DNA of 64,000 nucleotides from an uncultured Bacilli bacterium (GCA_910580185.1 CAJTWC010000001.1:99532-163531), one strand, 5' to 3'; counted from the first letter of the stretch, positions 28,591-62,734 are shown. Notes: generated from the sequence alone by a model not told the origin. Numbers and translations are program-made.

Positions 28591-28612
28591 CACTAAAACC
28601 TCCTTATAAATT

Positions 28613-28865
28613 AAAAAACAGCAAATCATCCCCATAGGGACGAATAGCTGTTTATATCCGTGGTACCACCCAGTTTACTATTAATAAATAATAGTCACTT
28701 TAAGATATTTTAACGGGTTATCTTCCGTCTTAGCCTACTTTAATTAAATTTCGGTAAGATACTCCGAGGTGTTCTTTCTTTAAATTATCTTACTGATATT
28801 CCACCACCATCAGCTCTCTTTTAAGAATCATTTAAATACTTTTCCTCATCAACGTCTTTAAATAT
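28613..28865 (-). promoter_or_regulatory. T-box riboswitch leader
   Basis: Read on the minus strand. Promoter TTGTAA-16-TATAAT (28872-28899). Leader elements in order: GAUGAG K-turn, AGUA, AG bulge AGAGAG (28814-28819), distal loop GGUGGUGGAA, specifier loop GAAAGAACA (28770-28778), T-box UGGGUGGUACCACGG (28658-28672), then a terminator hairpin plus U6 (28613-28618) directly before the RBS. Confidence 0.85.
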
Positions 28866-29035: not shown

Positions 29036-29111
29036 TGGCGCTTCAAGTAGGACTCGAACCTACGACCTGCCGGTTAACAGCCGGATGCTCTACCAACTGA
29101 GCTATTGAAGC
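29036..29111 (-). tRNA. tRNA-Asn (GTT)
   Basis: GCTTCAATAGCTCAGTTGGTAGAGCATCCGGCTGTTAACCGGCAGGTCGTAGGTTCGAGTCCTACTTGAAGCGCCA. Cloverleaf with anticodon loop CTGTTAA, discriminator G and an encoded CCA. Confidence 0.95.
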
Positions 29112-29260
29112 ATAACTCTTTTTGAGGTACAAACAAATTATATATTAATTAAATATCTTTGTCAACAACTTTTTTTAATTTTTTTCTTTACTTAATTATA
29201 TTATATATATTAATACATATTACTAAAAAATATATGGACATGTAATAGATGAAACTATTT

Positions 29261-30751: not shown

Positions 30752-30845
30752 AAGTTATCACCAGTATTATTATGGTAGTTATTTACTTACTATATTCATG
30801 GCAAAAATAAAAAAACACCTAAGATAAACTTAAGTGTAATATTCT

Positions 30846-30922
<77 letters not shown>

Positions 30923-30936
30923 ATGTAAATTATAAA

Positions 30937-31029
30937 TGGCGGAGAAAGAGGGATTCGAACCCCCGCGCCGCTTGCGCGACCTCCCGGTTTTCAAGACCGG
31001 TCCCTTCAACCAGACTTGGGTATTTCTCC
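30937..31029 (-). tRNA. tRNA-Ser (TGA)
   Basis: GGAGAAATACCCAAGTCTGG...CCGGTCTTGAAAACCGG plus a long variable arm, ending TTTCTCCGCCA. Confidence 0.95.
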
Positions 31030-31130
31030 AACTTCATAATTATTATATGCAAAAATATAAAACATATAACAATTTGATAGCAATAAGATTATAACACACC
31101 TATTTTTTATTTGTCAATACATAAATTAGG

Positions 31131-31161
31131 TTTAAAAAACAGGCATATAATTATACCTGTT
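31131..31161 (-). terminator. Bidirectional-looking intrinsic terminator downstream of the CDF gene
   Basis: Hairpin AACAGG-12 nt-CCTGTT flanked by an A-run and a T-run. Confidence 0.55.
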
Positions 31162-31398
31162 AAAAAAGATTACTTTGCTAGCCACTTGGCTTATTAATTT
31201 CGTTTAATAAACCTTTAAACTAGCCTTCATATTGTTCACCCTCATTCATATATATTAATCTATAACTAATAATTATATTTATTTTTCTATATTTTGTACA
31301 TTATATCTTATTTTTCTATTTTCTCCACCTACCTTTCTATTTTAAGTATAAAATAAAAATATTAAATTATTATGTCAAAAGAAAAAGAAATTATTTTT

Positions 31399-32277
31399 TT
31401 AATTTCTTTCTCCAGGATTAACATGCACCATACAATGCTTTGTTGATGGTAATCTGTCTTCAATATTATCGTGGATGTTATGTGCAATACTATGCGCATT
31501 TAATACACTCATATTTTTATCTACCGAAATTTCTACATCTATATAGTAACGATTACCGAACTTTCTAGTTTTTAAATCATCTATTTTAACAACGTCCTTA
31601 CTTTCATAAATAATGTCTTCTATCTTTTTTATTGTTTCTTCATCACAAGATTTATCTATCATTTTATCTATTGCATCTTTAAATATGTCATAAGCAACTT
31701 TAATTATAAATAAACATATTATTATACTTGCTATAGAATCAAGCACCGGAAATCCTAATTTTGCACCTAGTATACCAATAAAACTTCCAACTGATGATAA
31801 AGCATCTGACCTATGGTGCCAAGCATCTGCTAGTAATGCACCTGAATTGATCTTTTTAGCGGTGTGTCTTGTATACCAATACATTGCCTCTTTTACTAAA
31901 ATAGACGTTACTGCAATAATAAGTGCTAAAGTACCAGATATTAAAATAACATATTTTCCTTTTATAATATTATTAACTCCAGTTACACCAATTCCAACAC
32001 CAGTTAACATAAGCATTACTGCTAATATAATAGAAGCTACACACTCTAACCTTTCATGACCGTATGGATGTTCTTTATCTGCCTTCTTATTTGATAATTT
32101 AACACCGATTATTACCACAATGGTACTTAATACATCTGATAACGAATGAATTGCATCAGATACCATCGCCTGTGAATGTGAAATAAAACCTGCAACAAAT
32201 TTTACTATTGTTAAAAATATGTTAGAGATTATACTAACAATTGATACTTTCATAGCATCTTTTTCATTATTGTTCAT
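31399..32277 (-). CDS. Cation diffusion facilitator (CDF) family metal efflux transporter
   Basis: Six TM segments, HSLSD and HHRSD motifs in TM2/TM5, and a C-terminal cytoplasmic domain. Confidence 0.85.
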   Translation of the reverse strand: MNNNEKDAMKVSIVSIISNIFLTIVKFVAGFISHSQAMVSDAIHSLSDVLSTIVVIIGVKLSNKKADKEHPYGHERLECVASIILAVMLMLTGVGIGVTGVNNIIKGKYVILISGTLALIIAVTSILVKEAMYWYTRHTAKKINSGALLADAWHHRSDALSSVGSFIGILGAKLGFPVLDSIASIIICLFIIKVAYDIFKDAIDKMIDKSCDEETIKKIEDIIYESKDVVKIDDLKTRKFGNRYYIDVEISVDKNMSVLNAHSIAHNIHDNIEDRLPSTKHCMVHVNPGERN

Positions 32278-32417
32278 AATAACCCTTCTTTCTTTATAGT
32301 ATATGTATATGAAAACATCTTGCGAAAAAAGTAATAACTAATCCCGCAAGATGTTTAATTCATCTGCTGCTTATTAAAAAGCCCGGCCTATTGCCTGATC
32401 TAACAATTTTATCGTGC
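32278..32417 (-). promoter_or_regulatory. Structured 5' leader with mutually exclusive hairpins upstream of the CDF gene (candidate metal-responsive attenuator)
   Basis: Promoter TTGACT-18-TAATAT (32424-32453). There is a perfect 12-bp stem AAACAUCUUGCG/CGCAAGAUGUUU (32313-32324 with 32345-32356) followed by U's. The same CAUCUUGC segment can instead pair upstream with GCAGCAGAUG. Confidence 0.4.
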
Positions 32418-32510
32418 CCTAAAATATTAACACATTAATTCATTAAAAGTCAATTTGTTTTTTGTATTTTTACATAAAAAAACTAACCCTTATGGTCAGT
32501 AATTTTTAAG

Positions 32511-32599
32511 TGGTGCCCGAGGCCGGACTTGAACCGGCACGAGGTTTAACACTCGCAGGATTTTAAGTCCTGTGCGTCTACCAATTCCGCCACTCGGGC
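32511..32599 (-). tRNA. tRNA-Leu (TAA)
   Basis: GCCCGAGTGGCGGAATTGGTAGACGCACAGGACTTAAAATCCTG plus a long variable arm, ending CCTCGGGCACCA. Confidence 0.95.
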
Positions 32600-32600
32600 G

Positions 32601-32676
32601 TGGTGTCCTGTATGCGACTTGAACGCATGACCCTCTGATTAAAAGTCAGATGCTCTACCGACTGAGCTAACAGGAC
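32601..32676 (-). tRNA. tRNA-Lys (TTT)
   Basis: GTCCTGTTAGCTCAGTCGGTAGAGCATCTGACTTTTAATCAGAGGGTCATGCGTTCAAGTCGCATACAGGACACCA. Confidence 0.95.
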
Positions 32677-32690
32677 ATACTACTAAAATT

Positions 32691-32765
32691 TGGTTGCCTC
32701 GGCAAGATTCGAACTTGCGCATGTCAGAGTCAAAGTCTGATGCCTTACCACTTGGCGACGAGGCA
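32691..32765 (-). tRNA. tRNA-Gln (TTG)
   Basis: TGCCTCGTCGCCAAGTGGTAAGGCATCAGACTTTGACTCTGACATGCGCAAGTTCGAATCTTGCCGAGGCAACCA. Confidence 0.95.
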
Positions 32766-32772
32766 ATCTAAG

Positions 32773-32856
32773 TGGTGGGGAGAGGTGGATTCGAACCACC
32801 GAACCCTAAGGAACAGATTTACAGTCTGCCGCGTTTAGCCACTTCGCTATCTCCCC
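32773..32856 (-). tRNA. tRNA-Tyr (GTA)
   Basis: GGGGAGATAGCGAAGTGGCTAAACGCGGCAGACTGTAAATCTGT plus a variable arm, ending CCTCTCCCCACCA. Confidence 0.95.
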
Positions 32857-32860
32857 ATAG

Positions 32861-32936
<76 letters not shown>

Positions 32937-32944
32937 ATAATAAA

Positions 32945-33021
32945 TGGTGGACGCTATAGGACTCGAACCTATGACCCCCTGCTTGTAAGGCAGGTGCTCT
33001 AACCAACTGAGCTAAGCATCC
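32945..33021 (-). tRNA. tRNA-Val (TAC)
   Basis: GGATGCTTAGCTCAGTTGGTTAGAGCACCTGCCTTACAAGCAGGGGGTCATAGGTTCGAGTCCTATAGCGTCCACCA. The six-tRNA operon has the promoter TTGACA-17-TATATT just upstream (~33043-33078). Confidence 0.95.
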
Positions 33022-49229: not shown

Positions 49230-50135
49230 CTAATATTTATATGTTGATTCAGAATCAACATCCCCATAGTTATGGGGATTTGAAACGCTAGATTCGGTAG
49301 CTGATTCACCAATACCATATAATACTTTTAAATAATTTTCATCAGTGCTTAGTTTTTTATTAACTACTTTTCTAATTACCCTATTAATTTCTAACTCTAA
49401 TTTATTTAAAAAAGTCATATGTGTCAATAAATACTTAGCTAAAGCATCATCAATAGTTTTAATATATTCTATTATAAATTGAGGGATTTCATTTCTATTA
49501 ACTTTTGATAAATCAACACCGTTTTTACGAAGCGTTTTTTCAAGCACTTCATTTTCAGCTAGTAATTCATTCTCGATGTCATAATCATGAAAAATACTAT
49601 AAATATACCATCTTGCAAAATGTTCTTTTATTATTTCACTATCATTATTATTTTTAGATATTACATTAAAGCGACTTTCTGAATTTTCAGGCACCTTACC
49701 TTCTTCTTTACTAATAATTTCCATTGATTTGTCATCAACTAATTTATAAATATCTTCCTGAATATCATCTAAACCTTCAGTTCCTAATACTTTATCAAAC
49801 AATTTATATTTATCAATATATAAAACTATTTCTTTATATTCTAATGTTTCCTTTTCATTATCAGATACTGATTCTAAATAAGTTTTAGCTACTGATAGCA
49901 TTTGTGCAATGTTCTTTCCACATAGTTTTAATGTTTCCATAACGAATTTAGGATCTTTTTTTACACGTTCCGATGGAAAACGAATCATTTTAATATCAAA
50001 ACTACCTTTTGTCTCAACAATCTTTTTAAAAACCGCGATCATAAATGGCGTATAATCTTCTAACTTTTCTACATCCACATCTTCTTTATCATTACCACTA
50101 ATATAATTTTCAACTGTTTCTTCATCAAAATTCAT
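49230..50135 (-). CDS. Hypothetical acidic protein
   Basis: 301-aa ORF between rpe and infC. I recognise no family. Confidence 0.55.
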   Translation of the reverse strand: MNFDEETVENYISGNDKEDVDVEKLEDYTPFMIAVFKKIVETKGSFDIKMIRFPSERVKKDPKFVMETLKLCGKNIAQMLSVAKTYLESVSDNEKETLEYKEIVLYIDKYKLFDKVLGTEGLDDIQEDIYKLVDDKSMEIISKEEGKVPENSESRFNVISKNNNDSEIIKEHFARWYIYSIFHDYDIENELLAENEVLEKTLRKNGVDLSKVNRNEIPQFIIEYIKTIDDALAKYLLTHMTFLNKLELEINRVIRKVVNKKLSTDENYLKVLYGIGESATESSVSNPHNYGDVDSESTYKY

Positions 50136-50157
50136 AATATTTACCCTGCTTTCTAAT

Positions 50158-50778
50158 TTATTTTAAATTATTTATTTTATCATCATAATTACTACTATCA
50201 GTTATATAAGAGCCAGAAACAACCATATCACAACCTGCATATTTACAAAGTTCTATCGTTTTATCATTTACTCCACCATCAATGCTTACAATTAAATCTG
50301 TTGGGGCTATTTTTTTAATTTTTCTTATCTTTTCTACTACTTCTTCTTTGAAACTTTGCCCCCCTGCGCCTGGAGATACACTCATAAATAACACTAAATC
50401 TATATCATCTAAGTAAGGAATGATTTTTCTTTCATCAGTTTCAGGATTTATTGCCAAACCTACTTTTAAGCCTAATGACTTAACATAATCTATTAAGCTA
50501 AAATCATCTATTACCTCAACGTGAAAAGTTATGTATTGAGGCTCTAATTTTGCATACTCTTTTATAACACTATGATCTTTAACCATTAAATGTAAATCTA
50601 TTCTTTTAGTACTAACTGCTTTTATATCTTTAACAACTTCTAACGGAAACTTTTTGTTATCAACAAATTTTCCATCCATAACATCAACGTGCAGGAAATC
50701 AGCACTTGATTTATTAACCTTTTTAACAGCGGATATTAAATTTTCATATTCTTTTAATATTGAAACTGATACTTTCAT
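50158..50778 (-). CDS. rpe: Ribulose-phosphate 3-epimerase
   Basis: SILKE..ADFLHVDVMDGKFV and a C-terminal DGGVN motif. Confidence 0.9.
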   Translation of the reverse strand: MKVSVSILKEYENLISAVKKVNKSSADFLHVDVMDGKFVDNKKFPLEVVKDIKAVSTKRIDLHLMVKDHSVIKEYAKLEPQYITFHVEVIDDFSLIDYVKSLGLKVGLAINPETDERKIIPYLDDIDLVLFMSVSPGAGGQSFKEEVVEKIRKIKKIAPTDLIVSIDGGVNDKTIELCKYAGCDMVVSGSYITDSSNYDDKINNLK

Positions 50779-50782
50779 TTTA

Positions 50783-51625
50783 TCACCATTTTTTATCAGG
50801 AATACTATCTATAAACTTTTTATAGTTTTCATATCTTGTATTTCTAATTTTACCTTCACTTACTAACTTTTTTATATAACAGCCATCTTCTTTTATATGA
50901 AGACAATCTTGGTATTTACAGTTATCTTCATTTTCATAAAATTCTATAAAATTATCTTTTATATCTTTTTTATCCATTCCTATAAAGTCCAAAGATGAAA
51001 ATCCAGGAGTATCTGCAACCAAACCTCCATCTATATCTAATAGTTCAACGTGCCTTGTGGTATGCCTACCTCTTCCTAATGCTTTTGATATTTCACCCGT
51101 TGCTAAATTTAAATCTTCTTTTAAACTATTTAGTAAAGAGGATTTACCGACTCCAGTTTGTCCTGTTAAAACACTTATTTTATCTTTTAGAAGATTCTTT
51201 ATATCACTTATTTCTTTATTTATATAAACTGTATAACCTATAGTTCTATAATAATTTATTATTTCATCCATTTCGGATGTATCATCTAATAAATCATACT
51301 TTGTAAAACATATTATTGGTTTTATATTGTTATATTCAATAACAACTAGCATTTTATCAAGTAAATTACTAGAAAAATTAGGTTCCCTACAACTAACTAG
51401 TATTATTGCTTGATCAACGTTTGCAATCGGCGGTCTTACAAGCTCGTTTTTTCTAGGCATTATGTTTTTAATAACGTTATTTTCTTTATCTATTTCAACT
51501 ATATCTCCTACTAAGGGAGATATTTTAAGATATTTAAATTTACCAATAGAAGAACACTCATAAAAGTGTCCTTCTACTAAAACAGTCCATTTATTACTAA
51601 TTAATTTTATTACTCTTCCTGTCAT
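50783..51625 (-). CDS. rsgA: Ribosome small-subunit-dependent GTPase A
   Basis: GQTGVGKSSLLN P-loop and a C-terminal zinc knuckle CKYQDCLHIKEDGC. Confidence 0.9.
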   Translation of the reverse strand: MTGRVIKLISNKWTVLVEGHFYECSSIGKFKYLKISPLVGDIVEIDKENNVIKNIMPRKNELVRPPIANVDQAIILVSCREPNFSSNLLDKMLVVIEYNNIKPIICFTKYDLLDDTSEMDEIINYYRTIGYTVYINKEISDIKNLLKDKISVLTGQTGVGKSSLLNSLKEDLNLATGEISKALGRGRHTTRHVELLDIDGGLVADTPGFSSLDFIGMDKKDIKDNFIEFYENEDNCKYQDCLHIKEDGCYIKKLVSEGKIRNTRYENYKKFIDSIPDKKW

Positions 51626-53364
51626 TATTCTCCTTCATCTACATTTGGGGCATCTGCTTTAGTAGTTGTTGTCTGAGGCTTTTCAGATACTACAACTTTA
51701 AATGTTTCATTTTCAAAAACTTCATCGCCAGCTTTTGGAGATTGACCAATAACAGTACCTTCATCAACGGAATCATCTGCTTGATATGTAACTTTTATTG
51801 AAAGACCATATTTTTCGCAGTATTCTTTAGCTCTCTCCAAAGTCCATTTATCAGTTACCATATCTGGATAAACTGTTAAAATTTTTGGAATGTATAATAT
51901 TATATTTTGTCCAGATGCAAGCTTAGTTCCTTCTTTTATACTTTGATCTATTACCTGCTGTTTATTATCTTTGTAACTAGCTGAATCTTCTACTTCTTTT
52001 TCTTCTATTGTAACAACAAGACCAAGTAGCTCTAATTTTGCCTTTGTTTCATACGCATTAGTACCCTTATAATTTTCAATTGTTGTTTTCTTACTTCCTG
52101 ATGAATAATATATCGTTATAACAGAACCCTTTTTTACGTATCTATTTTTTTTCGGTTCAGTTTCTATTACCAAATCTTCATCTACTTCATCACTAGTTTT
52201 TTTCTTAGAATCAATTTTAAAACCTTCTTTTTTTAGCATTTTCTCAGCTTTAGATATTTCCATACCATATACATCTGGTACTTCAACATCTTTTGAAGAC
52301 ATTAATTTAGGAAGCAGCATTAATAGTACTAACGCTAGTGCTAAAACACCAATAATAACACTAATTAATACTATCTTTTTTTTGTTACTTTTTTCTATTT
52401 TTTCTTCTTCAGTAATTTGTTTTATAGCAGGTTTAGCTGCTTCGTTTTTTATATTTTCTTTTTTAACGTTAGTGATTGTATCATTATTTGAAAAATCACT
52501 TTCAGGATATCTAAATGTTATTTTTTCTTCTTTTTCGCGAGACTCATCTAAACAAGTTTCAATATCATCTGCCATTTCTCTTACGTCACGATATCTGTTC
52601 TTAGGATTTTTAGCAGCCGCTTTTAAAACTATGTTTTCAACAGATTGAGGCACAACTGGATTAATTTCTCTTACGCTAGGAAGTGGTTCTTTCATGTGTT
52701 TTAATGCTATTTCAACAGCTGAATCTCCTTTAAACGGACATTTTCCCGTTAGCATTTCAAACATAAGAATTCCTAAAGAATATATATCACTTCTAATTGT
52801 TGAACCTTTCCCACTAGCTTGCTCTGGTGGTAAATAATGAACTGACCCCATAACTGAATTAGTTTGAGTAAGTTGTGCATTATTTAATGCCATCGCAATA
52901 CCAAAGTCAGTTATTTTAACAAGGCCACTTTCTTTTATCATAATATTTTGTGGTTTTATATCCCTATGAATTATGTATGAATCATGCGCACTAGCTAGTG
53001 CATCAGATAACTGAAGCATAATATCCATTGTTTCAGGAAGAGATAAAACTCCTCTTTTCTTTATCAACTGTTTTAAAGTTTTTCCTTCAATATATTCCAT
53101 TACTATGTAAAAATTACCATCATCTTCTCCAACGTCATAAATTTCTACTATGTTTGGATGTGATAATGAAGATGCAGAAAGTGCTTCCCTTTGGAACCTT
53201 CTAACAAACTTTTCATCGCCTGCTAAATCACCTCTTAAAACCTTTACAGCAACTTTTCTTCCTAAAATAGTATCACTTGCTAAATAAACATTAGCCATTC
53301 CGCCTTCGCCAATTAATTTTTCAATTTCATAACGATCATTTATAAGTTGTCCTTTAGCGATCAT
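51625..53364 (-). CDS. prkC: Ser/Thr protein kinase with extracellular PASTA repeats
   Basis: Hanks kinase motifs (HRDIKPQN, DFGIA), a TM segment, and three PASTA-like repeats. Confidence 0.9.
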   Translation of the reverse strand: MIAKGQLINDRYEIEKLIGEGGMANVYLASDTILGRKVAVKVLRGDLAGDEKFVRRFQREALSASSLSHPNIVEIYDVGEDDGNFYIVMEYIEGKTLKQLIKKRGVLSLPETMDIMLQLSDALASAHDSYIIHRDIKPQNIMIKESGLVKITDFGIAMALNNAQLTQTNSVMGSVHYLPPEQASGKGSTIRSDIYSLGILMFEMLTGKCPFKGDSAVEIALKHMKEPLPSVREINPVVPQSVENIVLKAAAKNPKNRYRDVREMADDIETCLDESREKEEKITFRYPESDFSNNDTITNVKKENIKNEAAKPAIKQITEEEKIEKSNKKKIVLISVIIGVLALALVLLMLLPKLMSSKDVEVPDVYGMEISKAEKMLKKEGFKIDSKKKTSDEVDEDLVIETEPKKNRYVKKGSVITIYYSSGSKKTTIENYKGTNAYETKAKLELLGLVVTIEEKEVEDSASYKDNKQQVIDQSIKEGTKLASGQNIILYIPKILTVYPDMVTDKWTLERAKEYCEKYGLSIKVTYQADDSVDEGTVIGQSPKAGDEVFENETFKVVVSEKPQTTTTKADAPNVDEGE

Positions 53365-53366
53365 AA

Positions 53367-54104
53367 CTATTCACCACTTTCCTTTTCTAAACATGCGATG
53401 GATACGTTATCAGTACCACCCCTTAAATTACTCTTTCTTATTAATTTAACAACCTTTTCCTCTAAGGATAAATCACTATTTAAAACTTTTTCTATTTGAC
53501 TTGCATTAAGCATATTAGTAAGGCCGTCACTGCATAAAAGGATTGCATCACATTCTCTTTCAACATCAAATATATCAACGTCTATTGGATTATTCGCTCC
53601 AAGCGCTCTCATAAGTACGTTCTTCCTTGGGTGATTTAATGCTTCTTCCTTAGTAAGTTCTCCTGTTTCTACAAGTAAATTAACTAAAGTATGATCTTTT
53701 GTTACTTTATATAAACCACCTTTTTTCATAACAAAACCTGATGAATCTCCTACGTTACCAAACAAGATATAATCATCTGTTACTATTGCTAATACTAAGG
53801 TTGTTCCCATTCCCTTGCTTTCTTTAAACTCATCAGTATATTTAAATATTGCATCATTAAGACTACTTACGTTTTCTCTTATCCAATTAACTGCATTTTG
53901 TTTTTCTCCAATGGATTCTAATTTTTTAAATTTATCGGTAAGACCATTTACAACTATTGAAGAGGCAACCTCGCCTGCTTTATGCCCACCCATACCATCT
54001 GCTACTACCATCAGATACTCACCTGATAAGTCATTAACAATCATAACAGAATCTTCATTATGAGTTCTAACTTTTCCAGTATCAGATACATAATATGCTT
54101 TCAT
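53367..54104 (-). CDS. prpC: PP2C-family Ser/Thr phosphatase
   Basis: Start at MKAYYVSDTGKVRTHNEDS behind the RBS AAAGGAGA. DGMGGH motif. Confidence 0.9.
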   Translation of the reverse strand: MKAYYVSDTGKVRTHNEDSVMIVNDLSGEYLMVVADGMGGHKAGEVASSIVVNGLTDKFKKLESIGEKQNAVNWIRENVSSLNDAIFKYTDEFKESKGMGTTLVLAIVTDDYILFGNVGDSSGFVMKKGGLYKVTKDHTLVNLLVETGELTKEEALNHPRKNVLMRALGANNPIDVDIFDVERECDAILLCSDGLTNMLNASQIEKVLNSDLSLEEKVVKLIRKSNLRGGTDNVSIACLEKESGE

Positions 54105-54105
54105 G

Positions 54106-55137
54106 TTATATTTCTCCTTTACTAATTTGTTCACTCCTTAACTGCCCACATGCTGCGGACACCTTAGAACCAAACTCTCTTCTTATTGTTACGTTTATAT
54201 TACTTTCTTTTAATATATCATAAAATCTATTAATTGTCACTTTATCACTAGTTTTATATTCTATGTGAGAAGTTTCATTATAAGGAATTAAATTAACATA
54301 GCAATTTAGCCCTTTTAATAGACTAGCTAACTCTTTAGCACACTTTGGTGTATCATTTACTCCTTTTAATAAAATATATTCGAAAGTTACCCTTCTATTT
54401 GTAACCTTAATATAATCCTTTACAGCGTCTATTATATCATTTACTTTATAAGCCTTATTAATAGGCATTATCTTATTTCTTATTTCATCATTTGGTGCAT
54501 GAAGACTAATAGCTAAATTAACACCTGTTTTTTCATTTGTAAATTCTCTTATTTTAGGAACTAAACCACACGTTGAAATCGTAATATGCCTTATTCCAAT
54601 ATTTATCCCCTTAGGGTCATTAATAATGTTTATAAAACGCATAACGTTATCATAGTTATCAAATGGTTCACCAATTCCCATTAAAACAACGTGACTAATT
54701 CTTTCGTCTATATCTTCTTCTACTGCAAGAATTTGTAAAACAAGTTCGAAAGCATTTAGGTTTCTTAATTTTTTTAACCTTCCTGATTCACAAAAACGGC
54801 ACCCCATATTACAGCCGACTTGCGTCGATACACATAAGCTATTACCATAATCATGATTCATAAGTACCGCTTCTATTTTATTTCCATCATATAGTTCAAA
54901 TAAGTACTTTCTTACGTCTAGATCTTTTTGAACGGTAACAAGCTTTAATCTATCGGTACTTAAATGTTCTTTTAAATACTTAATTAAATCTTTTTTTAAG
55001 TTAGTCATTTCATCAAACGCTTTAATACGTTTAATATATAACCAGTCAAAAACTTGATCTGCTCTAAACTTAGATTCACCTATTTCTTTAAAATAATTTT
55101 CTAATTCTTCTTTTGTATAATTATAAATACTATTCAT
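54106..55137 (-). CDS. rlmN: 23S rRNA/tRNA A2503 methyltransferase, radical SAM
   Basis: CNMGCRFCESG radical-SAM cluster motif and a C-terminal Cys. Confidence 0.9.
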   Translation of the reverse strand: MNSIYNYTKEELENYFKEIGESKFRADQVFDWLYIKRIKAFDEMTNLKKDLIKYLKEHLSTDRLKLVTVQKDLDVRKYLFELYDGNKIEAVLMNHDYGNSLCVSTQVGCNMGCRFCESGRLKKLRNLNAFELVLQILAVEEDIDERISHVVLMGIGEPFDNYDNVMRFINIINDPKGINIGIRHITISTCGLVPKIREFTNEKTGVNLAISLHAPNDEIRNKIMPINKAYKVNDIIDAVKDYIKVTNRRVTFEYILLKGVNDTPKCAKELASLLKGLNCYVNLIPYNETSHIEYKTSDKVTINRFYDILKESNINVTIRREFGSKVSAACGQLRSEQISKGEI

Positions 55138-55242
55138 TAAAAAGACTCCTTAACTAATACAATTATATCAAATTTGAACATAAAGGTTAATAAAATATAC
55201 AAAACAAAATAAAGCCTATATACATAAGCTTTACGTTTAATT

Positions 55243-55767
55243 TTATTTTATATTAAATAAGGTTATTAACTTACCAACTTTAAACACTATCTTATCCGCA
55301 TTCTTAATCGCCACTTTTTTAAATATCGCTTTACCACCAACCGTTAAAGATGAAATTAAAGCAGCTAGTATTATACTAACTAAAGTACTATTTATACCGC
55401 TTTTAGAAGATAAACTAATGGATAATATCGCTCCAATTGATCCTGATATAATACCACATACATCTCCTACTATATCATTACATAATGATGATATTTTATT
55501 ACCATTCTTAACTATGAAAACACATTGTTTAGCACCTTTTATTTTTTTCGAGTTTAAAGCATGAAAGCTAGACTCCTTGGCAGTTATTGAAGATGTTCCA
55601 ATAACATCGAATAAAATACCAATAGATATAGTTACTAAAAGTATTATAAACAATACTAAATCATTAAAATTAGCAGCCATAGAATTAGATACAAAGCTAA
55701 AAATAATTGATAATATAAAAGTTAATATAAAAACTATTAATATCCAATTATCTTTTTTATTTTTCAT
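55243..55767 (-). CDS. Small polytopic membrane protein (weak resemblance to the DUF21/CNNM transmembrane domain)
   Basis: 174 aa with four or five hydrophobic spans. The DUF21 likeness is by eye only. Confidence 0.6.
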   Translation of the reverse strand: MKNKKDNWILIVFILTFILSIIFSFVSNSMAANFNDLVLFIILLVTISIGILFDVIGTSSITAKESSFHALNSKKIKGAKQCVFIVKNGNKISSLCNDIVGDVCGIISGSIGAILSISLSSKSGINSTLVSIILAALISSLTVGGKAIFKKVAIKNADKIVFKVGKLITLFNIK

Positions 55768-55779
55768 AAAGCCTCCTAA

Positions 55780-56285
55780 TAAAAAAACTTTAACAACAAG
55801 TTAAAGTTAGTTTTTCTGTATGGTATATTACAAATCAACTTTACGGCTTTGGTCGAGTTGAATTTCTCTTTCCAGTACTCAAGATTACTCTTAAAGCACT
55901 TTCGTTTTAAACCGGAAAACTATCTGTTGCCATAAATAGTTACTCGATTACCACTTAGTCCGCACTTTAATACTTGTAATATATACACGCTAGAGGTTTT
56001 CCCTAACAAAAGTGACTATTCTTATATGCTTTTGCATTTGATATTTCATTAATTATTCTAAATCCCTACCAAACACTCACATCATGTACGTTATTATATT
56101 ATTTCAGTGACGTGATAAAAGGAATTATCAGCTGCATGCCATTGCAGTTATCCTTAAATCTTAAATCTTATTAACACCCTAACTTGGGCAGAAAAAGCAT
56201 TAATAAGAAGTGTCATTCGACAATTGGTAGATTTTTAGGCCTACCTTCAAATAGTATAATGACTAGCATAATGCACCACACATGA
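55780..56285 (-). ncRNA. ~500-nt ORF-free transcript from a consensus promoter to an intrinsic terminator; long structured leader/riboswitch candidate for the 55243-55767 gene
   Basis: Promoter TTGACT-17-TATAAT (56291-56319, minus strand). No ORF of 60 aa or more in any frame. Composition is visibly less AT-rich than other spacers. Terminator AACUUUAAC-5 nt-GUUAAAGUU plus U7 (55781-55808) lies 4 nt before the RBS GGAGG. Upstream GUAAAGUU (55837-55844) can pair with the terminator 5' arm instead, and is itself sequestered in the hairpin at 55835-55861. Confidence 0.5.
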
Positions 56286-56400
56286 CCAAAATTATAGCAT
56301 ATTACTATCTAAAAGTCAATTTTCAGATATCATACTACAATTTATTATATTCATAGTATAAACAAATTAATACTTGAAAATACTATTAATGGAGGTAAAA

Positions 56401-56568
56401 ATGATGAATGACGATAATAAATCAATAAAATGCAATGTTGAATCTTGTAAATACAATAATAGCAATGACAACTATTGCACTTTAAATGAAATAAAAGTTA
56501 GTTGCACATGCGATTCATGTGATGCTTGTAAAAAAGAAACGATTTGTGATAGTTTTAAAGAAAAATAA
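56401..56568 (+). CDS. Small Cys-rich protein, DUF1540-like
   Basis: 55 aa from the ATG behind the RBS GGAGGT (the track ORF starts at an upstream TTG). It contains two copies of the pattern KC.V.SC.Y....C....I.V. Confidence 0.6.
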   Translation: MMNDDNKSIKCNVESCKYNNSNDNYCTLNEIKVSCTCDSCDACKKETICDSFKEK

Positions 56569-56640
56569 AAAATTATAATATTTTTTAGTTTATTAATAAG
56601 TTTTATTGAATAAATATAATTGATATTGTATAATATAAAT

Positions 56641-56716
56641 GAAGGAAGCAACTTACTAGTTGTTTTCCAAATTGTTTTTTGTAAAACAAGGCTAGCTTTA
56701 ACTAACCTTGTTTTTC
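56641..56716 (+). ncRNA. Predicted ~75-nt small RNA, module A (antitoxin-like)
   Basis: Promoter TTGAAT-17-TATAAT (56606-56634). 5' hairpin GGAAGCAAC-UUACUA-GUUGUUUUCC. Terminator ACAAGG-14 nt-CCUUGU plus UUUUUCUU. No ORF with an RBS. Confidence 0.55.
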
Positions 56717-56806
56717 TTATATACTAAAAATAATAACTAGTACTATTATAAGTATTAAAATGATAATTAATTTTGGACTAAATTTTATTTCAAATCTAAA
56801 TCTCAT
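56717..56806 (-). CDS. Unannotated 29-aa hydrophobic peptide, module A (type I toxin-like)
   Basis: MRFRFEIKFSPKLIIILILIIVLVIIFSI. SD GGAAGGTGGTGG lies 5 nt upstream of the ATG. The stop abuts the shared terminator. Confidence 0.55.
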   Translation of the reverse strand: MRFRFEIKFSPKLIIILILIIVLVIIFSI

Positions 56807-56943
56807 AATTACCACCACCTTCCTATTCTTCATAAAAAGATGGAAAACAAAGCTAGCTTTCTACTGCTTCCTATATAATTATTAGCCATGAATTTTAAAA
56901 TTCCACTAAAAATACGAAAAAAGTTGAACTTTTTTAAACTCTT

Positions 56944-57984
56944 TTATATTTTGATTTGTTTAAGCATAGCTATACCATTAGTATTTTCAGGATTATCTTT
57001 TTCTATTAACGATATATAAAAATTTATTGCTCTATTCCTTCCTTCAGTCTTATGCTGCAAAGCATCTATTTGTCTTAAAACACCATCTTCGCTAATACAA
57101 TATCTATATAAATCTATCATTTTATCAAATCTACTAATTTCTATTTCATTTTTAAATAGAAAAAATATAAGAGGTCTTCCTGTTTCATAATACCTTTCCT
57201 CCCAATTATCATCACAATACCTATTATCTTCTAGATAATCTTCTAATATACTACAATTATTTTCTTTTACTATATGATATAGTAAATCAACTAATATATT
57301 CTTTTGCTCAAAAGTTAAATCTCCATAAACACTTTCATTCATTGCAAAATTTGCTATTCCTGCCACAATACTTGAACCATTGCTAAGCATTTGATAATTA
57401 GTCCTTTTATCTAATATCAGCTTTCTAGTAACATTATTTATATTTTTGTGATCAAACATACACCAAAATGGTTCATAACTTGCTAAAATTTTTCTTGTAT
57501 TAGGGTTAAAAAGACCTCTATCTATTAAATTTTTATACATATCATAGAATTCTTGTTTATCCCATTTTATCCTATTTAATAATAAATAAATTGGATCTGT
57601 ATCACCTTTATCAATTTTAATTTCCCAATACAAATCATAAGAATTAACATATTTATAAAATTCATAGTTTTTTGCATCTTTAAAATCAACCATAGTCCAT
57701 TCATAATCAAATATTTTATTTTCTAACCCATTAAGAATATATTCCCATTTGCTTTTGATCAATTTATCTAAATCATCTAAACTATCTGATAAGTTGACAT
57801 TAAACAAATTATTTGCAATTTCTGTGTTTTTTTCTTTAAATCTCAATGTACCATTATATTTACTATCATACATATATTTTTTGTTTAATTCGTTTCTTTG
57901 CTCTAATCTAATTTTACATAAATCAACATTGTATCTTATTGTTAACATTATTAAAAAGTTAAAATATTCTTCTTTTGGATTCAT
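56944..57984 (-). CDS. Orphan 346-aa protein bracketed by the two module copies
   Basis: Long ORF with the RBS AGGTG. I recognise no family, TM segment or signal peptide. Confidence 0.65.
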   Translation of the reverse strand: MNPKEEYFNFLIMLTIRYNVDLCKIRLEQRNELNKKYMYDSKYNGTLRFKEKNTEIANNLFNVNLSDSLDDLDKLIKSKWEYILNGLENKIFDYEWTMVDFKDAKNYEFYKYVNSYDLYWEIKIDKGDTDPIYLLLNRIKWDKQEFYDMYKNLIDRGLFNPNTRKILASYEPFWCMFDHKNINNVTRKLILDKRTNYQMLSNGSSIVAGIANFAMNESVYGDLTFEQKNILVDLLYHIVKENNCSILEDYLEDNRYCDDNWEERYYETGRPLIFFLFKNEIEISRFDKMIDLYRYCISEDGVLRQIDALQHKTEGRNRAINFYISLIEKDNPENTNGIAMLKQIKI

Positions 57985-58083
57985 AACTACACCTATAAAT
58001 TAATACCATTTATTATAAATTATTTAAATATTTTTATCAATATAAATATTGAATAAACATAACTGCTATTGTATAATATAAAA

Positions 58084-58165
58084 GAAGGAAGCAACATTAC
58101 TAGTTGTTTTCCAAAATGTTTTCAAATTGAAAAACAGAGCTAGTTACCCACTAACTCTGTTTTTC
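58084..58165 (+). ncRNA. Predicted ~80-nt small RNA, module B
   Basis: Promoter TTGAAT-17-TATAAT (58049-58077). Same 5' hairpin as copy A. Terminator ACAGAG-15 nt-CUCUGU plus a U-run. Confidence 0.55.
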
Positions 58166-58255
58166 TTATATACTAAAAATAATAACTAGTACTATCATAA
58201 GTATTAGAATGATAATTAATTTTGGACTAAATTTTATTTCAAATCTAAACCTCAT
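58166..58255 (-). CDS. Unannotated 29-aa hydrophobic peptide, module B
   Basis: MRFRFEIKFSPKLIIILILMIVLVIIFSI, one substitution relative to copy A. SD AGAAGGGTGGTG. Confidence 0.55.
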   Translation of the reverse strand: MRFRFEIKFSPKLIIILILMIVLVIIFSI

Positions 58256-58376
58256 AAATATCACCACCCTTCTATTTTTCATAAAAAGATGGAAAACAAA
58301 GCTAGTTTCTACTGCTTCCTAATTAATTGTTAGTCATAAATTTTAAAATTCCCCTATTTTTTTAATAAAAAAAAGA

Positions 58377-59312
58377 TTATTTAAACATTTTTCCTAAATA
58401 ATCTTCTTTTTTATTTCCATTTATAAAATCTTTTATATTCATTTTCTTTTTACCTGGAACTTGCAGTTCAGTAATAATTATACTACCATCTTTAGTTACT
58501 ACTTCCATGCCATTTTTATCTAAATTAACTATTGTTCCAGATTTTTCATTATATTTTTTATTACCTATTTTTGATAACCATAATTTAATGTTTTTATCTT
58601 CTAGTGTAGCATATGCTCCCGGCCAAGAATTAAGTCCTCTTATCTGATTGTATATTTCTTTTGAAGTCTTATTAAAATCCACGTGTTCTTCTTGTCTTGA
58701 AACATTATAAGCATAAGTTGCTTCATCTTCATTTTGTTTTTCTCTTTTATTAGTACCATTAATTATACTAGGCAATGTATCCATTAAAAGTGGAACTGCT
58801 ACTTTACTTAATTTATCGTGAAGTATTTCTACTGTATCAGTACCTTCTATTTTAATTTCTACTTTTGAAATTATATCTCCAGTATCCATTCCTTTATCCA
58901 TATACATAATAGTTATTCCTGTTTTATCATATCCATATATAATAGATTTATGAATAGGCGCACCTCCCCTTAATTTTGGAAGAAGTGAAGCATGAACATT
59001 AATACATCCAAAACGTGGTGCATTAAGAATTTCTTCTGGAACAATTTGTCCATATGCACAAGTTATTATGATATCTGGTCTTAAACTAATTATTTCTTCA
59101 TAATCTTCTTTTATTTTTATTGGTTGAAATACTTTTATATTATGTTCTAAAGCTAGCTTCTTTATTGGAGAATAAACTACCTCTTTTTTTCTTCCGACTT
59201 CTTTATCAGGTTGTGTTACAACCAAAAGTACGTTACACGTTTTTATTAACTCATCTAATATTGGAACACAAAACTCTGGTGTACCCATAAATATTACCTT
59301 TAAATCCTTCAT
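58377..59312 (-). CDS. fmt: Methionyl-tRNA formyltransferase
   Basis: FMGTPEF N-terminus and the HASLLPKLRGGAPI motif. Confidence 0.95.
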   Translation of the reverse strand: MKDLKVIFMGTPEFCVPILDELIKTCNVLLVVTQPDKEVGRKKEVVYSPIKKLALEHNIKVFQPIKIKEDYEEIISLRPDIIITCAYGQIVPEEILNAPRFGCINVHASLLPKLRGGAPIHKSIIYGYDKTGITIMYMDKGMDTGDIISKVEIKIEGTDTVEILHDKLSKVAVPLLMDTLPSIINGTNKREKQNEDEATYAYNVSRQEEHVDFNKTSKEIYNQIRGLNSWPGAYATLEDKNIKLWLSKIGNKKYNEKSGTIVNLDKNGMEVVTKDGSIIITELQVPGKKKMNIKDFINGNKKEDYLGKMFK

Positions 59313-59347
59313 AAACCATCCTTCTTTCTAGAAAAAGAAACTTCTCT

Positions 59348-60391
59348 TTAGAAAAGTTTCAAAATATCTTTTATTGTTATAAATATCATAAGTGCAAAAA
59401 GTAGCATTAATCCTATGTTATTTACTATTGCATCTACTTTAGGATTTACTTTTTTATCTGTTATTTTTTCAAATAATATTACAACCGCACGATATCCATC
59501 GAATGCTGGAAATGGTAATAAATTAATAAATCCAACGTTTATTGATAAATATGCTAATAAGTATAATAGTCCAGATAATCCTGCTTTACTTTGAGCTCCT
59601 ACTATTGTATATATTCCAACAGGACCAGATAATGCACCTACTCCTATTTTACCAGTAACTAAAGCTTTAATGGTAACTATCATGGAATTAAAAGTAGAGC
59701 CAAACTTACTAGTAGCGTATTTAAATGCATTTCCTATACCATGATACTTAGTACTATCTAATCCCATACCATATGAATAAGAAACATTGCCATCTTTGTC
59801 TTTTATTTTCTTTGGCGTTACTTTTATGTTTTTTTCTTTACCATCATTAGTTTCAATAGTAATATTTTGAGCATTACTATTATCTGCTAATGTAAGTGTT
59901 AAAGTAACATCATCCCAAGTTCTTGTTTTCTTACCATTTATCTTTAATATTTTATCACCTGTTTTAAGTCCCGCTTTTTCACAAGCAGAATCTTTGGCAA
60001 CCTCTCCTATTATTGGTTTAGTTGTATAAGAGCCATAACATAAAGCCATGATAAATAAAACTACAAAACCTAGTATAAAGTTATTGATAACACCTGCCAA
60101 TACAATGATTAACTTTTTATACCAAGGTTTATTATACATCTTTTTATCCTTTGGAACATTTGTGTCATCATCAACTTCTTCTCCAGCCATAGCAACATAT
60201 CCACCAATTGGAATTAATCTTAAACAATATAAAGTTTCATCATTTTTTCTTTTAAATGAAAACAATTTAGGCCCAAAACCTAGTGAAAATTCATAGCAAT
60301 AAACTCCTGATTTCTTTGCCCAGAAAAAATGTCCTAGTTCATGAATAAAGACAATTATTCCTAGCATTAATATAAAATATATTAAAGTCAT
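59348..60391 (-). CDS. rseP: Site-2 (M50) intramembrane zinc metalloprotease with a PDZ domain
   Basis: HELGHF in TM1, a central PDZ domain and a C-terminal LDG-type motif (AFDGY). Confidence 0.9.
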   Translation of the reverse strand: MTLIYFILMLGIIVFIHELGHFFWAKKSGVYCYEFSLGFGPKLFSFKRKNDETLYCLRLIPIGGYVAMAGEEVDDDTNVPKDKKMYNKPWYKKLIIVLAGVINNFILGFVVLFIMALCYGSYTTKPIIGEVAKDSACEKAGLKTGDKILKINGKKTRTWDDVTLTLTLADNSNAQNITIETNDGKEKNIKVTPKKIKDKDGNVSYSYGMGLDSTKYHGIGNAFKYATSKFGSTFNSMIVTIKALVTGKIGVGALSGPVGIYTIVGAQSKAGLSGLLYLLAYLSINVGFINLLPFPAFDGYRAVVILFEKITDKKVNPKVDAIVNNIGLMLLFALMIFITIKDILKLF

Positions 60392-60400
60392 TTATTCCTC

Positions 60401-61174
60401 CTAAATAATACCTGATAATAAAATATATCCAATAATAACGAAAATAATACTATCTAATCTATCTAATACGCCACCATGCCCTGGCATTATATTAGAAAAG
60501 TCTTTTATATCATGATTTCTTTTTACTGCCGAGAAAAATAAGTCTCCTAATTGTCCTAAACATGATAAGAATAATGTGATTATAAGTAAACCAAGCACAT
60601 TAACATTTGAATCAATTGCTATATAATAGAACGTTGATGCACATAAAGTACCAAATATACCACCAACTATAGCCCCTTCCCAAGTTTTATTAGGAGAAAT
60701 TTTAGGAGCAAACTTATGCTTACCAACTAAAGTACCTGCTAAATGAGCATAAGTATCCGTTAACATTGTAATTAAGAATAAATATATAAATAACATTAAA
60801 CTTTTTTCTCTAATTACCGTAAACCCATAAAAAATAGTTCCAACTAGCATAGTCATACCAATAAGTTTAAAGGCCTCATCAGCATTATACTTTTTATTAT
60901 CATTACAATATATAACCGCAAGAAGTGGTACTAACATTGTTAAAAAATAATATATTTCTCTTTTTTCATTCATAAAAACAAGTAATATTGTAAGTGCATA
61001 AATAATTACATCAATATAAATTGGCCTTTTATTTTTATGAGGTAAATCTAAAAACTCCTTAATTCCTAACACCGCTAAAACACACGCTGCTATTTTAAGC
61101 CATATACCACCAACTATTATTAGTGGAATAAATATAGCTAAAGCAACTACCGCACTAATTAATCTTTTTTTCAT
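60401..61174 (-). CDS. cdsA: Phosphatidate cytidylyltransferase
   Basis: Polytopic membrane protein with the C-terminal signature SAVKRNHDIKDFSNIMPGHGGVLDRLDS. Confidence 0.9.
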   Translation of the reverse strand: MKKRLISAVVALAIFIPLIIVGGIWLKIAACVLAVLGIKEFLDLPHKNKRPIYIDVIIYALTILLVFMNEKREIYYFLTMLVPLLAVIYCNDNKKYNADEAFKLIGMTMLVGTIFYGFTVIREKSLMLFIYLFLITMLTDTYAHLAGTLVGKHKFAPKISPNKTWEGAIVGGIFGTLCASTFYYIAIDSNVNVLGLLIITLFLSCLGQLGDLFFSAVKRNHDIKDFSNIMPGHGGVLDRLDSIIFVIIGYILLSGII

Positions 61175-61285
61175 ATTTTCACATCCTTACTTTTTTATTA
61201 TAATACAATTAAAGATTTTTAACAATTAAATTGCGTTTTCAAGTATAATATTTACATTATTTTGTTATTATTGTATAATCTAATT

Positions 61286-61373
61286 AGTGAGAGCACCTAA
61301 CTTAAGGTTAGTAGCTTTCCTTAATGTTTGTTAAGGAAAAAGCGTACACCCCCCTGGGTAAGTACGCTTTTTC
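61286..61373 (+). ncRNA. Predicted ~90-nt small RNA, module C (divergent family member)
   Basis: Promoter TTTACA-17-TATAAT (61251-61279). 5' hairpin CCUAAC-UUAA-GGUUAG, second hairpin UUCCUUAA..UUAAGGAA, terminator GCGUAC-14 nt-GUACGC plus U5. Confidence 0.5.
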
Positions 61374-61375
61374 TT

Positions 61376-61456
61376 TTATATCTTAAATACTAGCATGGCT
61401 ATTATTATAAGTAAAAGAAGTATTATTACTCTAAGAAAACGTCTTTCTTCTTTCAT
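61376..61456 (-). CDS. Unannotated 26-aa hydrophobic peptide, module C
   Basis: MKEERRFLRVIILLLLIIIAMLVFKI. SD AGAGGGGTGGTG lies 6 nt upstream. Its own -10 TATAAT is at 61526-61531 (minus strand). Confidence 0.5.
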   Translation of the reverse strand: MKEERRFLRVIILLLLIIIAMLVFKI

Positions 61457-61591
61457 AATATCACCACCCCTCTATATTCATATTAGGATGGAAAGCATAA
61501 CTAACCCATTATTAGGTGTCCTCATATTATACTTCGCCATTATTTTATAAAATCCCCTAAAAAAATAAAAAAATTAGAATTTCTTCTAATT

Positions 61592-61840
61592 TTAGTATGA
61601 GTCAATATTAATATTTACTCTTTTATTATCATTCATATATGAGCTTGCTTGAACTATAGTTCTAAGCGCTTTTGCAAGCTTACCTTGTTTTCCAATTACT
61701 CTTCCCATTTCGCTTTCTGGAACCATTACTTGTATAGTAACTGTGTTTTCTTCCTCACTTGGGAATTCCTTAACGGTAATGCTATCAGCATCACAAACAA
61801 GTTCTTTTACTATTGTTTCTGTTAGTTTAATTAATTCCAT
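61592..61840 (-). CDS. khpA: KH-domain RNA-binding protein (YlqC/KhpA-like)
   Basis: 82 aa, GRVIGKQGKLAKALR KH motif, directly downstream of rpsP as in other Firmicutes. Confidence 0.8.
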   Translation of the reverse strand: MELIKLTETIVKELVCDADSITVKEFPSEEENTVTIQVMVPESEMGRVIGKQGKLAKALRTIVQASSYMNDNKRVNINIDSY

Positions 61841-61842
61841 AA

Positions 61843-62115
61843 TTATTTACCTTGTTTTTCATTAGCAAATTTAGTCATAATTCCAGCTTTAGAAAAAATA
61901 TTTCTAACTGTATCAGTTGGAGTTGCACCATTTCTTAACCATTTCATTGCTAATTCTTCATCAATCTTAGTTTCAGCTGGATTTACTAATGGATTGTAAG
62001 TTCCTACTGTTTCAATGAATCTACCATCTCTTGGGCTTCTTGAATCAGCTGCTACGATACGGTAGAAAGGTCTTTTTTTAGCTCCCATTCTTTTTAATCT
62101 TAATTTAACTGCCAT
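61843..62115 (-). CDS. rpsP: Ribosomal protein S16
   Basis: Start at [21 protein letters not shown] behind the RBS GAAGGAGG. The track ORF starts 19 codons upstream. Confidence 0.95.
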
Positions 62116-62215: not shown

Positions 62216-62734
62216 CTATATAAAATCCTCTTTTACTTCTTCATCAATTTTTTTATTAATTGCCTCTTCATCATCATCCAGTGTTTCCCATGGTTCTTCG
62301 TCATCTTCAACCATAATTTTAACTTTTGTATCATTTACTATTTCTATTCCTAGCTCTTTTTCTATATCAAACTCTATTACATCATCCTTTATTTGTACGT
62401 TACTACAAGACGGTTGTTTTAAAGATCTTACTATTATGTCACTACCTAAAACAGATGTTCCCATTTTAGTTTTAACATTAACGGTTTCAGAATACGCTAT
62501 ATTTTTGCTAGCAACCGCTGTTTTTTTATCATCATCATAGGAATACCATATGTTTATGTCATAGTTTCCGTCAATGACAACTTTATCACCTACTACAGAA
62601 CCTTTAAAGTTATGATTTATAACCCAGCATCCTAAAATGGTATTAGCATTATGTTCTGCTAGTAAGTTATAATTATTTTTAAAATATTTTTTTCCTTTAC
62701 CTATTACTGCTTTTGTAACTATTTCTTTAAACAT
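62216..62734 (-). CDS. cotE: Spore coat morphogenetic protein CotE
   Basis: EIVTKAVIGKGKKYF, ILGCWVINHNFKG, YDINIWYSYDDDKKT and an acidic C-terminal tail parallel B. subtilis CotE as I remember it. Confidence 0.75.
   Translation of the reverse strand: MFKEIVTKAVIGKGKKYFKNNYNLLAEHNANTILGCWVINHNFKGSVVGDKVVIDGNYDINIWYSYDDDKKTAVASKNIAYSETVNVKTKMGTSVLGSDIIVRSLKQPSCSNVQIKDDVIEFDIEKELGIEIVNDTKVKIMVEDDEEPWETLDDDEEAINKKIDEEVKEDFI

Follow-up and report, generated by a model that had tools for sequence, protein, structure and literature searches.

What is encoded by the roughly 500 nucleotides, lacking any open reading frame, that separate a promoter from a small membrane protein gene in the genome of an uncultured Bacilli bacterium? 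The window, by which we mean the whole 64,000-nucleotide stretch of DNA that was analyzed, had been described in an earlier note made from its sequence alone. That note took this interval to be a promoter-to-terminator RNA and proposed either a large riboswitch-like leader, perhaps resembling the M-box, or a novel non-coding RNA. We located all of its quoted strings and coordinates in the minus-strand read-out. We find that the stretch is a copy, in short form, of OLE (ornate, large, extremophilic) RNA, a known non-coding RNA; almost certainly, it is an ole gene, with oapA directly after it, from an uncultured gut Bacillota bacterium of low G+C content (28%). It is therefore a copy of an already known RNA class in an already described short form, and not a discovery. 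OLE RNA has been known since 2006, and a recent proposal has it crossing the membrane as a dimer together with OapA; to our knowledge, it is among the largest bacterial non-coding RNAs that still lack an assigned biochemical function. The main features of the locus are the following.

56291-56319, minus strand: ole promoter of the sigma-A type, matching at 11 of 12 positions and the best site in 55000-57000
55804-56295 (Rfam envelope), minus strand: OLE RNA, short form, from the RF01071 match and covariation
55781-55808, minus strand: intrinsic terminator whose A/U-rich stem of 9 bp carries a 5-nt loop and is followed by seven U residues
55243-55767, minus strand: oapA (OLE-associated protein A), 174 aa, from its ORF, synteny, and DxxxD motif

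The stretch matches the OLE family

To identify known structured RNAs, we performed cmscan across the whole window against Rfam 15 and found a match to RF01071 (OLE) at 55804-56295 on the minus strand, with a score of 234.1 bits (gathering score 50, E value ~1 × 10−66). This match is 492 nt long in the window, spans model positions 1 to 616, and is not truncated. We also performed a permissive cmscan against Rfam (55600-56500, E ≤ 10, permissive filters), in which no other family was credible; the three further matches were at chance level, with E values of 4.6 to 9.5.

The earlier description of the interval as free of ORFs and unusually rich in G+C was borne out. All six frames are closed across 55768-56290, with 9 to 17 stops per frame and a longest open stretch of 52 codons. 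The G+C content of the OLE RNA is 32.5%, compared to 28.0% for the window and ~18-26% for spacers without RNA genes.

Short and full-length copies among relatives

We performed a back-translation search of GTDB species genomes for relatives of OapA, resulting in 32 loci. In 27 of these, Rfam found an OLE RNA upstream of the OapA homologue and on the same strand, with 13 copies of the short form and 14 of full length. The OapA genes of L002, L003, L005, L007, and L022 had no OLE within the fetched flanks (≤ 3 kb) by either Rfam or a short-form nhmmer search; the genes upstream of the OapA homologue in L005 are large surface-protein-like ORFs. The 13 short-form relatives are metagenome-assembled genomes (MAGs) labelled Bacilli, Erysipelotrichaceae, or Bacillota. 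Together with the window, they carry OLE copies of 479 to 503 nt that score 202 to 236 bits. OLE copies from Clostridia loci (n = 14) score 333 to 517 bits, and the 13 untruncated ones are 577 to 677 nt long.

The loci nearest to the window come from MAGs labelled Bacilli, Bacillota, Erysipelotrichaceae, or Clostridia, in agreement with the anaerobic or extremophilic Bacillota that host OLE. The window also encodes CotE, the outer spore coat protein E (62216-62734, minus strand, E value 2.5 × 10−42), and the host thus appears to be a spore-former. This would be unexpected if the host were of the RF39 type, strongly reduced gut Bacilli in which short-form OLE is reported to be common.

A conserved fold supported by covariation

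To assess the structure without reference to the Rfam model, we aligned the 14 short copies using MAFFT and folded the alignment using RNAalifold. The resulting consensus fold comprises 22 helices with a total of 131 pairs, and 97.4% of cells are paired across the 14 sequences. Compensatory changes were found at 66 of the 131 pairs, compared to 32.3 ± 3.1 in shuffled alignments (none of 500 reached 66) and 15 to 21 in slid controls. This comparative folding, which the earlier note had suggested as a check, confirms a structured RNA and, together with the Rfam match, upholds its central observation of a structured non-coding RNA running from promoter to terminator upstream of a small membrane protein. 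The structural elements discussed below are these.

56226-56245, minus strand: probable P4 hairpin, GGUAGG-CCUAAAAAU-CUACC, with a conserved A-rich loop
56167-56210, minus strand: long P5/P5.1 hairpin with loop UGCCCAA, from the cmscan alignment; contains CUGCCCAA, singled out in the earlier note
56114-56160, minus strand: P6/P6.1 hairpin with loop CAAUGGCAUG; contains the previously noted UAAGGAUAAC...AUGCAGCUGAUAA
56085-56113, minus strand: A/U-rich linker in place of two model hairpins (199-278, inferred P7 and P8)
56026-56084, minus strand: truncated P9, basal helices kept
55988-56008, minus strand: probable P10 hairpin, UGUUAGGGAAAACCUCUAGCG, nearly invariant; contains the previously noted GUUAGGGAAAACC
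55824-55983, minus strand: 3' domain (domain 2), from the Rfam structure line and covariation

RNAalifold recovered the closing helix GUGUGGU / ACCAUAC, a long-range helix around the 5' domain (ACUAUUU with AAGAAUAGU), the hairpins P4, P5, and P6, P9, and the nested 3' domain. Helix 4 shows compensatory changes at four of its six pairs, and the P4-like loop, C53-T60, is invariant among the short copies; we infer that this hairpin is the P4 that makes the A-A dimer contact of the cryo-EM structures, a name that follows PMC12265935 and PMC12286853. The P5/P5.1 hairpin (helix 6) is compensatory at 10 of 17 pairs and the P6/P6.1 hairpin (helices 7 and 8) at 9 of 13. The P5.1 loop is complementary to the P6.1 loop GGCA, and a kissing-loop dimer contact between these two loops has been described (PMC12265935). 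Compensatory changes were also found in P9 (helices 9 and 10, 9/14 pairs). The P10 hairpin was flagged by a generic terminator scan, which we consider a false positive.

The 3' domain comprises helices 12 to 22, with compensatory changes at 8 of 11 pairs in helix 12 and at all eight in helix 18. It is closed by the pairing of UAUAUUACAAG (55983-55973) with UUUGUAAUAUA (55834-55824), and within it lie the P13 hairpin (55920-55941), whose loop is GGCAAC, and the segment UAAAGUU (55843-55837), conserved and unpaired, which the earlier note had read as an antiterminator arm.

In cryo-EM structures of Clostridium OLE, dimer contacts involve the A-rich loop of P4 and the complementary loops of P5.1 and P6.1 (PMC12286853, PMC12265935), and all of these are conserved in the short-form alignment. 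The P9 kissing-loop contact of the Clostridium structures is probably missing here, since the P9 tip is short and variable.

The window copy is a short-form OLE RNA

Which parts of the OLE model are absent from the window copy? In the cmscan alignment, 13 and 7 nt stand in for two model segments of 44 and 36 positions (199-278), and this deletion is common to all 14 short-form loci. From their position, the deleted segments would correspond to P7 and P8. In P9, only 5 nt remain of the distal 44 model positions, and the length and sequence of the P9 tip vary among the relatives (alignment columns 243-271). A small hairpin at Rfam model positions 424-435 is missing as well. The window copy does not have the full-length architecture of ~600 nt with P7, P8, and a long P9.

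The loss of P7 and P8 places the window copy in the published short "variant 2", which is still inside the OLE family. Variant 2 OLE RNAs lack P7 and P8 and are common in uncultured gut bacteria of the RF39 clade (Fernando & Breaker 2024, mSphere; PMC11332333). With them, the window copy shares the conserved OLE blocks and helices, the missing part of the P6-P9 region (P7/P8), the downstream oapA, and the type of host, an uncultured low-G+C gut member of the Bacillota. Nothing essential differs, though the window copy also has the P9 stub and lacks the 424-435 hairpin. Compared to the full-length OLE RNAs of Halalkalibacterium halodurans, Clostridium acetobutylicum, and C. botulinum, the window copy belongs to the same family by covariance model, has the same core of P1-P6 and P9-P15, is likewise followed by oapA, and has the dimer loops in common (A-rich P4; complementary P5.1/P6.1). 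It differs in size, at ~490-505 nt versus ~577-630 nt, and, unlike these RNAs, it has neither P7/P8 nor the long P9 arch with its symmetric kissing loop. Such minimised natural copies show which parts of OLE are dispensable, namely P7, P8, and the P9 arch, and which parts are kept, namely P1-P6, the P4 and P5.1/P6.1 dimer loops, and the entire 3' domain.

A dedicated promoter and terminator

The ole promoter consists of a −35 element TTGACT (56319-56314), a 17-nt spacer that includes a TG at 56299-56298, and a −10 element TATAAT (56296-56291), and transcription is predicted to start at ~56283-56287. We found a −35 element and a TG-extended −10 element, 17 to 18 nt apart and 6 to 11 nt before the conserved GUGGUGCA, in 14/14 short-form loci. 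The promoter reported in the earlier note is thus real, and its placement holds even at loci whose upstream sequences are unrelated.

The terminator, AACUUUAAC-UUGUU-GUUAAAGUU followed by the U run, has a folding energy of −7.8 kcal/mol (z = −2.65). It was missed by the generic scan because its stem has fewer than three G-C pairs and the scan requires three. Its U run ends 4 nt before the AGGAGG ribosome-binding site of oapA (55776-55771), as first described, and the ORF starts 13 nt past the U run. A hairpin with a run of six to nine U residues lies 45 to 54 nt past the conserved GCCGUAAAxUUGAU in 12 of the 14 short-form loci; there is none in L012 and L016. The terminator loops differ among loci, and the stems differ too in L014 and L017. 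The recurrence of a hairpin and U tract at an equivalent position shows that the terminator is real.

From these boundaries, the primary ole transcript is predicted to run from ~56285 to ~55781, or roughly 505 nt. The framing by promoter and terminator is consistent over the 14 loci and thereby gives predicted ends for short-form OLE RNA, which would be useful for expression or imaging. The ole gene of H. halodurans is embedded in a large operon in addition to having its own promoter (PMC9723947); in contrast, ole in the window and its 13 relatives is a compact unit that has a promoter to itself and, in 12 of the 14, a terminator behind it.

The downstream gene is oapA

The 174-aa gene downstream of the OLE RNA is oapA. 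The protein has four hydrophobic segments at residues ~8-28, 36-57, 100-122, and 129-146, and a single-sequence AF2 model of low confidence (pLDDT 49) has four long helices at 3-28, 34-58, 100-120, and 127-140. It carries the motif D98-IVG-D102, and DxxxD is invariant in 18 aligned homologues. This DxxxD motif is characteristic of OapA and sets it apart from CNNM domains (PMC11332333).

We compared the protein to the CNNM domain of Pfam (PF01595, formerly DUF21) and found a match of 17.2 bits (E value 0.004), below the threshold of 28.4. Weak CNNM matches were present in 13 of the 18 OapA family members, with a best E value of 8 × 10−6. No NCBIfam model matched the protein, and a sequence search of the PDB yielded no match, either for OapA alone at E ≤ 1 or for the 18-sequence profile at E ≤ 10. 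The earlier impression of a DUF21/CNNM-like gene is thus right in a weak sense, because the faint CNNM similarity recurs across the family; that similarity stays below the Pfam threshold, and the gene itself is oapA. With CNNM, CorB, and MpfA proteins, OapA shares this sub-threshold similarity in the transmembrane domain, and a structural overlay of OapA with CorB (PDB 7M1U) has been reported, as has an anticorrelated occurrence of OLE and MpfA (both PMC11332333). Unlike those proteins, OapA is the membrane domain alone, without CBS or CorC domains, and it has four helices and DxxxD where CNNM domains have three helices and no DxxxD.

Alternative explanations for the stretch

Could the stretch instead be a long cis-regulatory leader, such as a riboswitch of M-box-like or tandem design, in which Mg2+ or another ligand switches between terminator and antiterminator to control oapA? 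The terminator does lie immediately ahead of the oapA ribosome-binding site, the downstream protein is faintly CNNM-like, and GUAAAGUU can form a duplex of 7 to 8 bp with the 5' arm of the terminator (−6.0 kcal/mol in the window, similar in L001 and L010). However, in 7 of the 12 terminator-bearing loci (L004, L006, L008, L009, L015, and L017 among them), this duplex is absent or does not outperform shuffled sequences; it forms in another register in L011 and L013. A G-to-A change that turns GUAAAGUU into GUAAAAUU is uncompensated, with ACUUUAA kept. Moreover, UAAAGUU corresponds to a conserved segment, AAaaUUU, that is unpaired in the OLE consensus of Rfam, so conservation of UAAAGUU is independent of the terminator in the window. 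The proposed anti-antiterminator hairpin fares no better, as its UCAACU and AGUUGA arms overlap the conserved long-range OLE helices ACUCGA/UCGAGU and UUUGUAAUAUA/UAUAUUACAAG. Among the relatives, there are oapA genes with their own promoter-like −10 element, behind an inserted gene (L010), or with no OLE within 3 kb, an arrangement at odds with a leader that controls oapA.

The whole RNA is explained by OLE, and no riboswitch family was matched in 55600-56500 at E ≤ 10. For the M-box (ykoK, RF00380) in particular, there was no match in this region under permissive filters. The strings likened to the M-box turned out to be conserved OLE motifs: the loops of P5.1 (UGCCCAA), P6.1 (AAUGGCAU), and P13 (GGCAAC) and the hairpin P10 (GGGAAAACC), with the fifth belonging to the OLE 3' domain. 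OLE and the M-box share only the theme of an RNA upstream of an Mg2+-linked gene; OLE is three times longer, lacks a conserved terminator/antiterminator switch, and is a component of a trans-acting ribonucleoprotein rather than a leader. The leader reading is therefore largely refuted, and we give it very little probability.

Less probable still is a novel, previously undescribed class of structured non-coding RNA. The stretch is ORF-free, enriched in G+C, and structured, as a novel class might be, but these are all properties of OLE as well and so leave the idea no support. The full-model OLE match at 234 bits overturns the novelty proposed earlier, and the short form was itself described in 2024 as variant 2 (PMC11332333). 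Finally, the remnant of a decayed protein-coding gene, to which a long non-coding stretch with stops in all frames might point, has a negligible chance of being correct, as the 14 homologous intervals keep base pairing by compensatory changes and conserve no reading frame, the Rfam match is to an RNA family, and the stretch has its own conserved promoter and terminator.

Possible coupling of ole and oapA

With the stretch taken as OLE RNA, we considered how oapA is expressed. Most relatives have a −10-like element (e.g., TGTTATAAT) between the terminator and oapA. In L010, a 270-aa ORF (L010:2129-2941) lies between the OLE terminator and oapA, and in L001 an extra stretch of ~250 nt is found there. 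In the short-form clade, ole and oapA are separable units that are not always adjacent, as is evident from the promoter-like elements of oapA, the inserted gene, and the OLE-less loci among the relatives.

In the window, we found no internal oapA promoter inside the OLE 3' end, either by scan or by eye. With a gap of 4 nt and no room for a promoter, oapA is probably expressed here by read-through of a leaky or weak OLE terminator, judging by the spacing alone; against this, a promoter specific to oapA seems to be present in most relatives. A leaky terminator would result in far more OLE RNA than oapA mRNA. In the window, L001, and L010, UAAAGUU in the 3' domain could base-pair with the terminator's 5' arm, to which it is complementary. 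It is conceivable, though we think it improbable, that read-through is tuned by how the nascent 3' domain of OLE is folded or bound by protein, as a lineage-specific feedback matching the supply of OapA to OLE RNA.

Proposed function

A strong sigma-A promoter lies a few nucleotides ahead of the first conserved helix, and the OLE RNA folds into the conserved multi-helix architecture and ends at a weak A/U-rich intrinsic terminator. We propose that the RNA would then dimerise via the retained A-rich P4 loop and the complementary P5.1/P6.1 loops and associate with OapA, a membrane protein that resembles CNNM and is a putative divalent-cation transporter. The resulting ribonucleoprotein would be located at the membrane and help the cell under stress from short-chain alcohols, cold, excess Mg2+, or poor carbon sources. 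For this organism, the dimerisation, OapA binding, membrane location, and stress role are carried over by analogy from distant species. H. halodurans requires the OLE-OapA particle when stressed by alcohol, cold, excess Mg2+, or poor carbon sources (PMC11332333, PMC12265935), and there disruption of OLE or OapA leads to Mg2+ sensitivity (PMC12265935). OapA has been interpreted as a CNNM-like transporter of divalent cations, with MpfA as its all-protein counterpart (PMC11332333, PMC12265935). From the published work, short-form hosts would be expected to lack OapB (ybzG) and OapC (ybxF/L7Ae-like) for the most part, and MpfA would be missing from any genome with OLE. The hunch in the earlier note about Mg2+ and CNNM happens to fit this published biology.

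Occurrence in metagenomes and metatranscriptomes

The window sequence is present in rat and mouse gut metagenomes. In one RNA-seq run (X25), a single 449-nt contig from a relative of 98% identity aligned to 55818-56266, strandless and with inexact ends. No other contig of this run fell within 50000-62000; as these are assembled contigs, absence cannot be proven from them. Metatranscriptomes of the bovine gut (rumen) contained OLE-like contigs, with depths of up to ~139 on the conserved blocks. This pattern fits a discrete and relatively abundant RNA, read from contigs without strand, exact ends, or quantification.

A further run (X42), of unspecified library kind, yielded a single 652-nt contig of 95% identity at 55729-56380 and almost nothing else in 12 kb. 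The contig extends from 85 nt upstream of the −10 element, through OLE and the terminator, to the first 39 nt of oapA. If this run is RNA, a relative would show read-through and perhaps a start further upstream; in the case of DNA, the contig is meaningless in this respect.

Genomic neighborhood and other observations in the window

The ole-oapA pair lies inside a conserved cluster of fmt ... rlmN, a PP2C phosphatase, a PASTA kinase, rsgA, and rpe (53367-59312, minus strand). In Bacillus subtilis, rsmB lies between fmt and rlmN; no rsmB-like ORF was seen in the 53367-59312 cluster. A direct repeat of ~305 nt, present at 56604-56908 and 58047-58356 with pieces 88 to 96% identical, brackets a 346-aa ORF (56944-57984, minus strand) without a match in Pfam or NCBIfam. 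Both copies of the repeat contain a hydrophobic ORF of 38 aa (MKNRKVVV... and MKNRRVVI...). Contigs of one metagenome run (X13) skip from 56671 to 58127 (1455 nt), and some strains thus appear to be without the 346-aa ORF and one repeat copy, which suggests an insertion between fmt and ole or a deletion there via repeat recombination. Divergent from the ole promoter region is a cysteine-rich DUF1540 ORF of 64 aa (56374-56568, plus strand, Pfam E value 1 × 10−8), for which there is no NCBIfam model.

Further from ole, nine tRNA genes on the minus strand at 29039-33021 fall into three groups (29039-29111, 30849-31029, and 32514-33021) and account for the G+C-rich spacers there. Ribosomal protein L20 (47662-48240, minus strand) is 192 aa long, where a typical L20 has ~118 aa; its C-terminal extension of ~75 residues ends in a Rho_N/HeH-like motif (Pfam E value 2.8 × 10−8). 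A T-box leader (28633-28861, minus strand, 147 bits) lies directly upstream of a Peptidase_M29 aminopeptidase gene (27337-28635, minus strand, E value 3.5 × 10−108), an unusual T-box target in that it is not an aminoacyl-tRNA synthetase, a biosynthetic gene, or a transporter.
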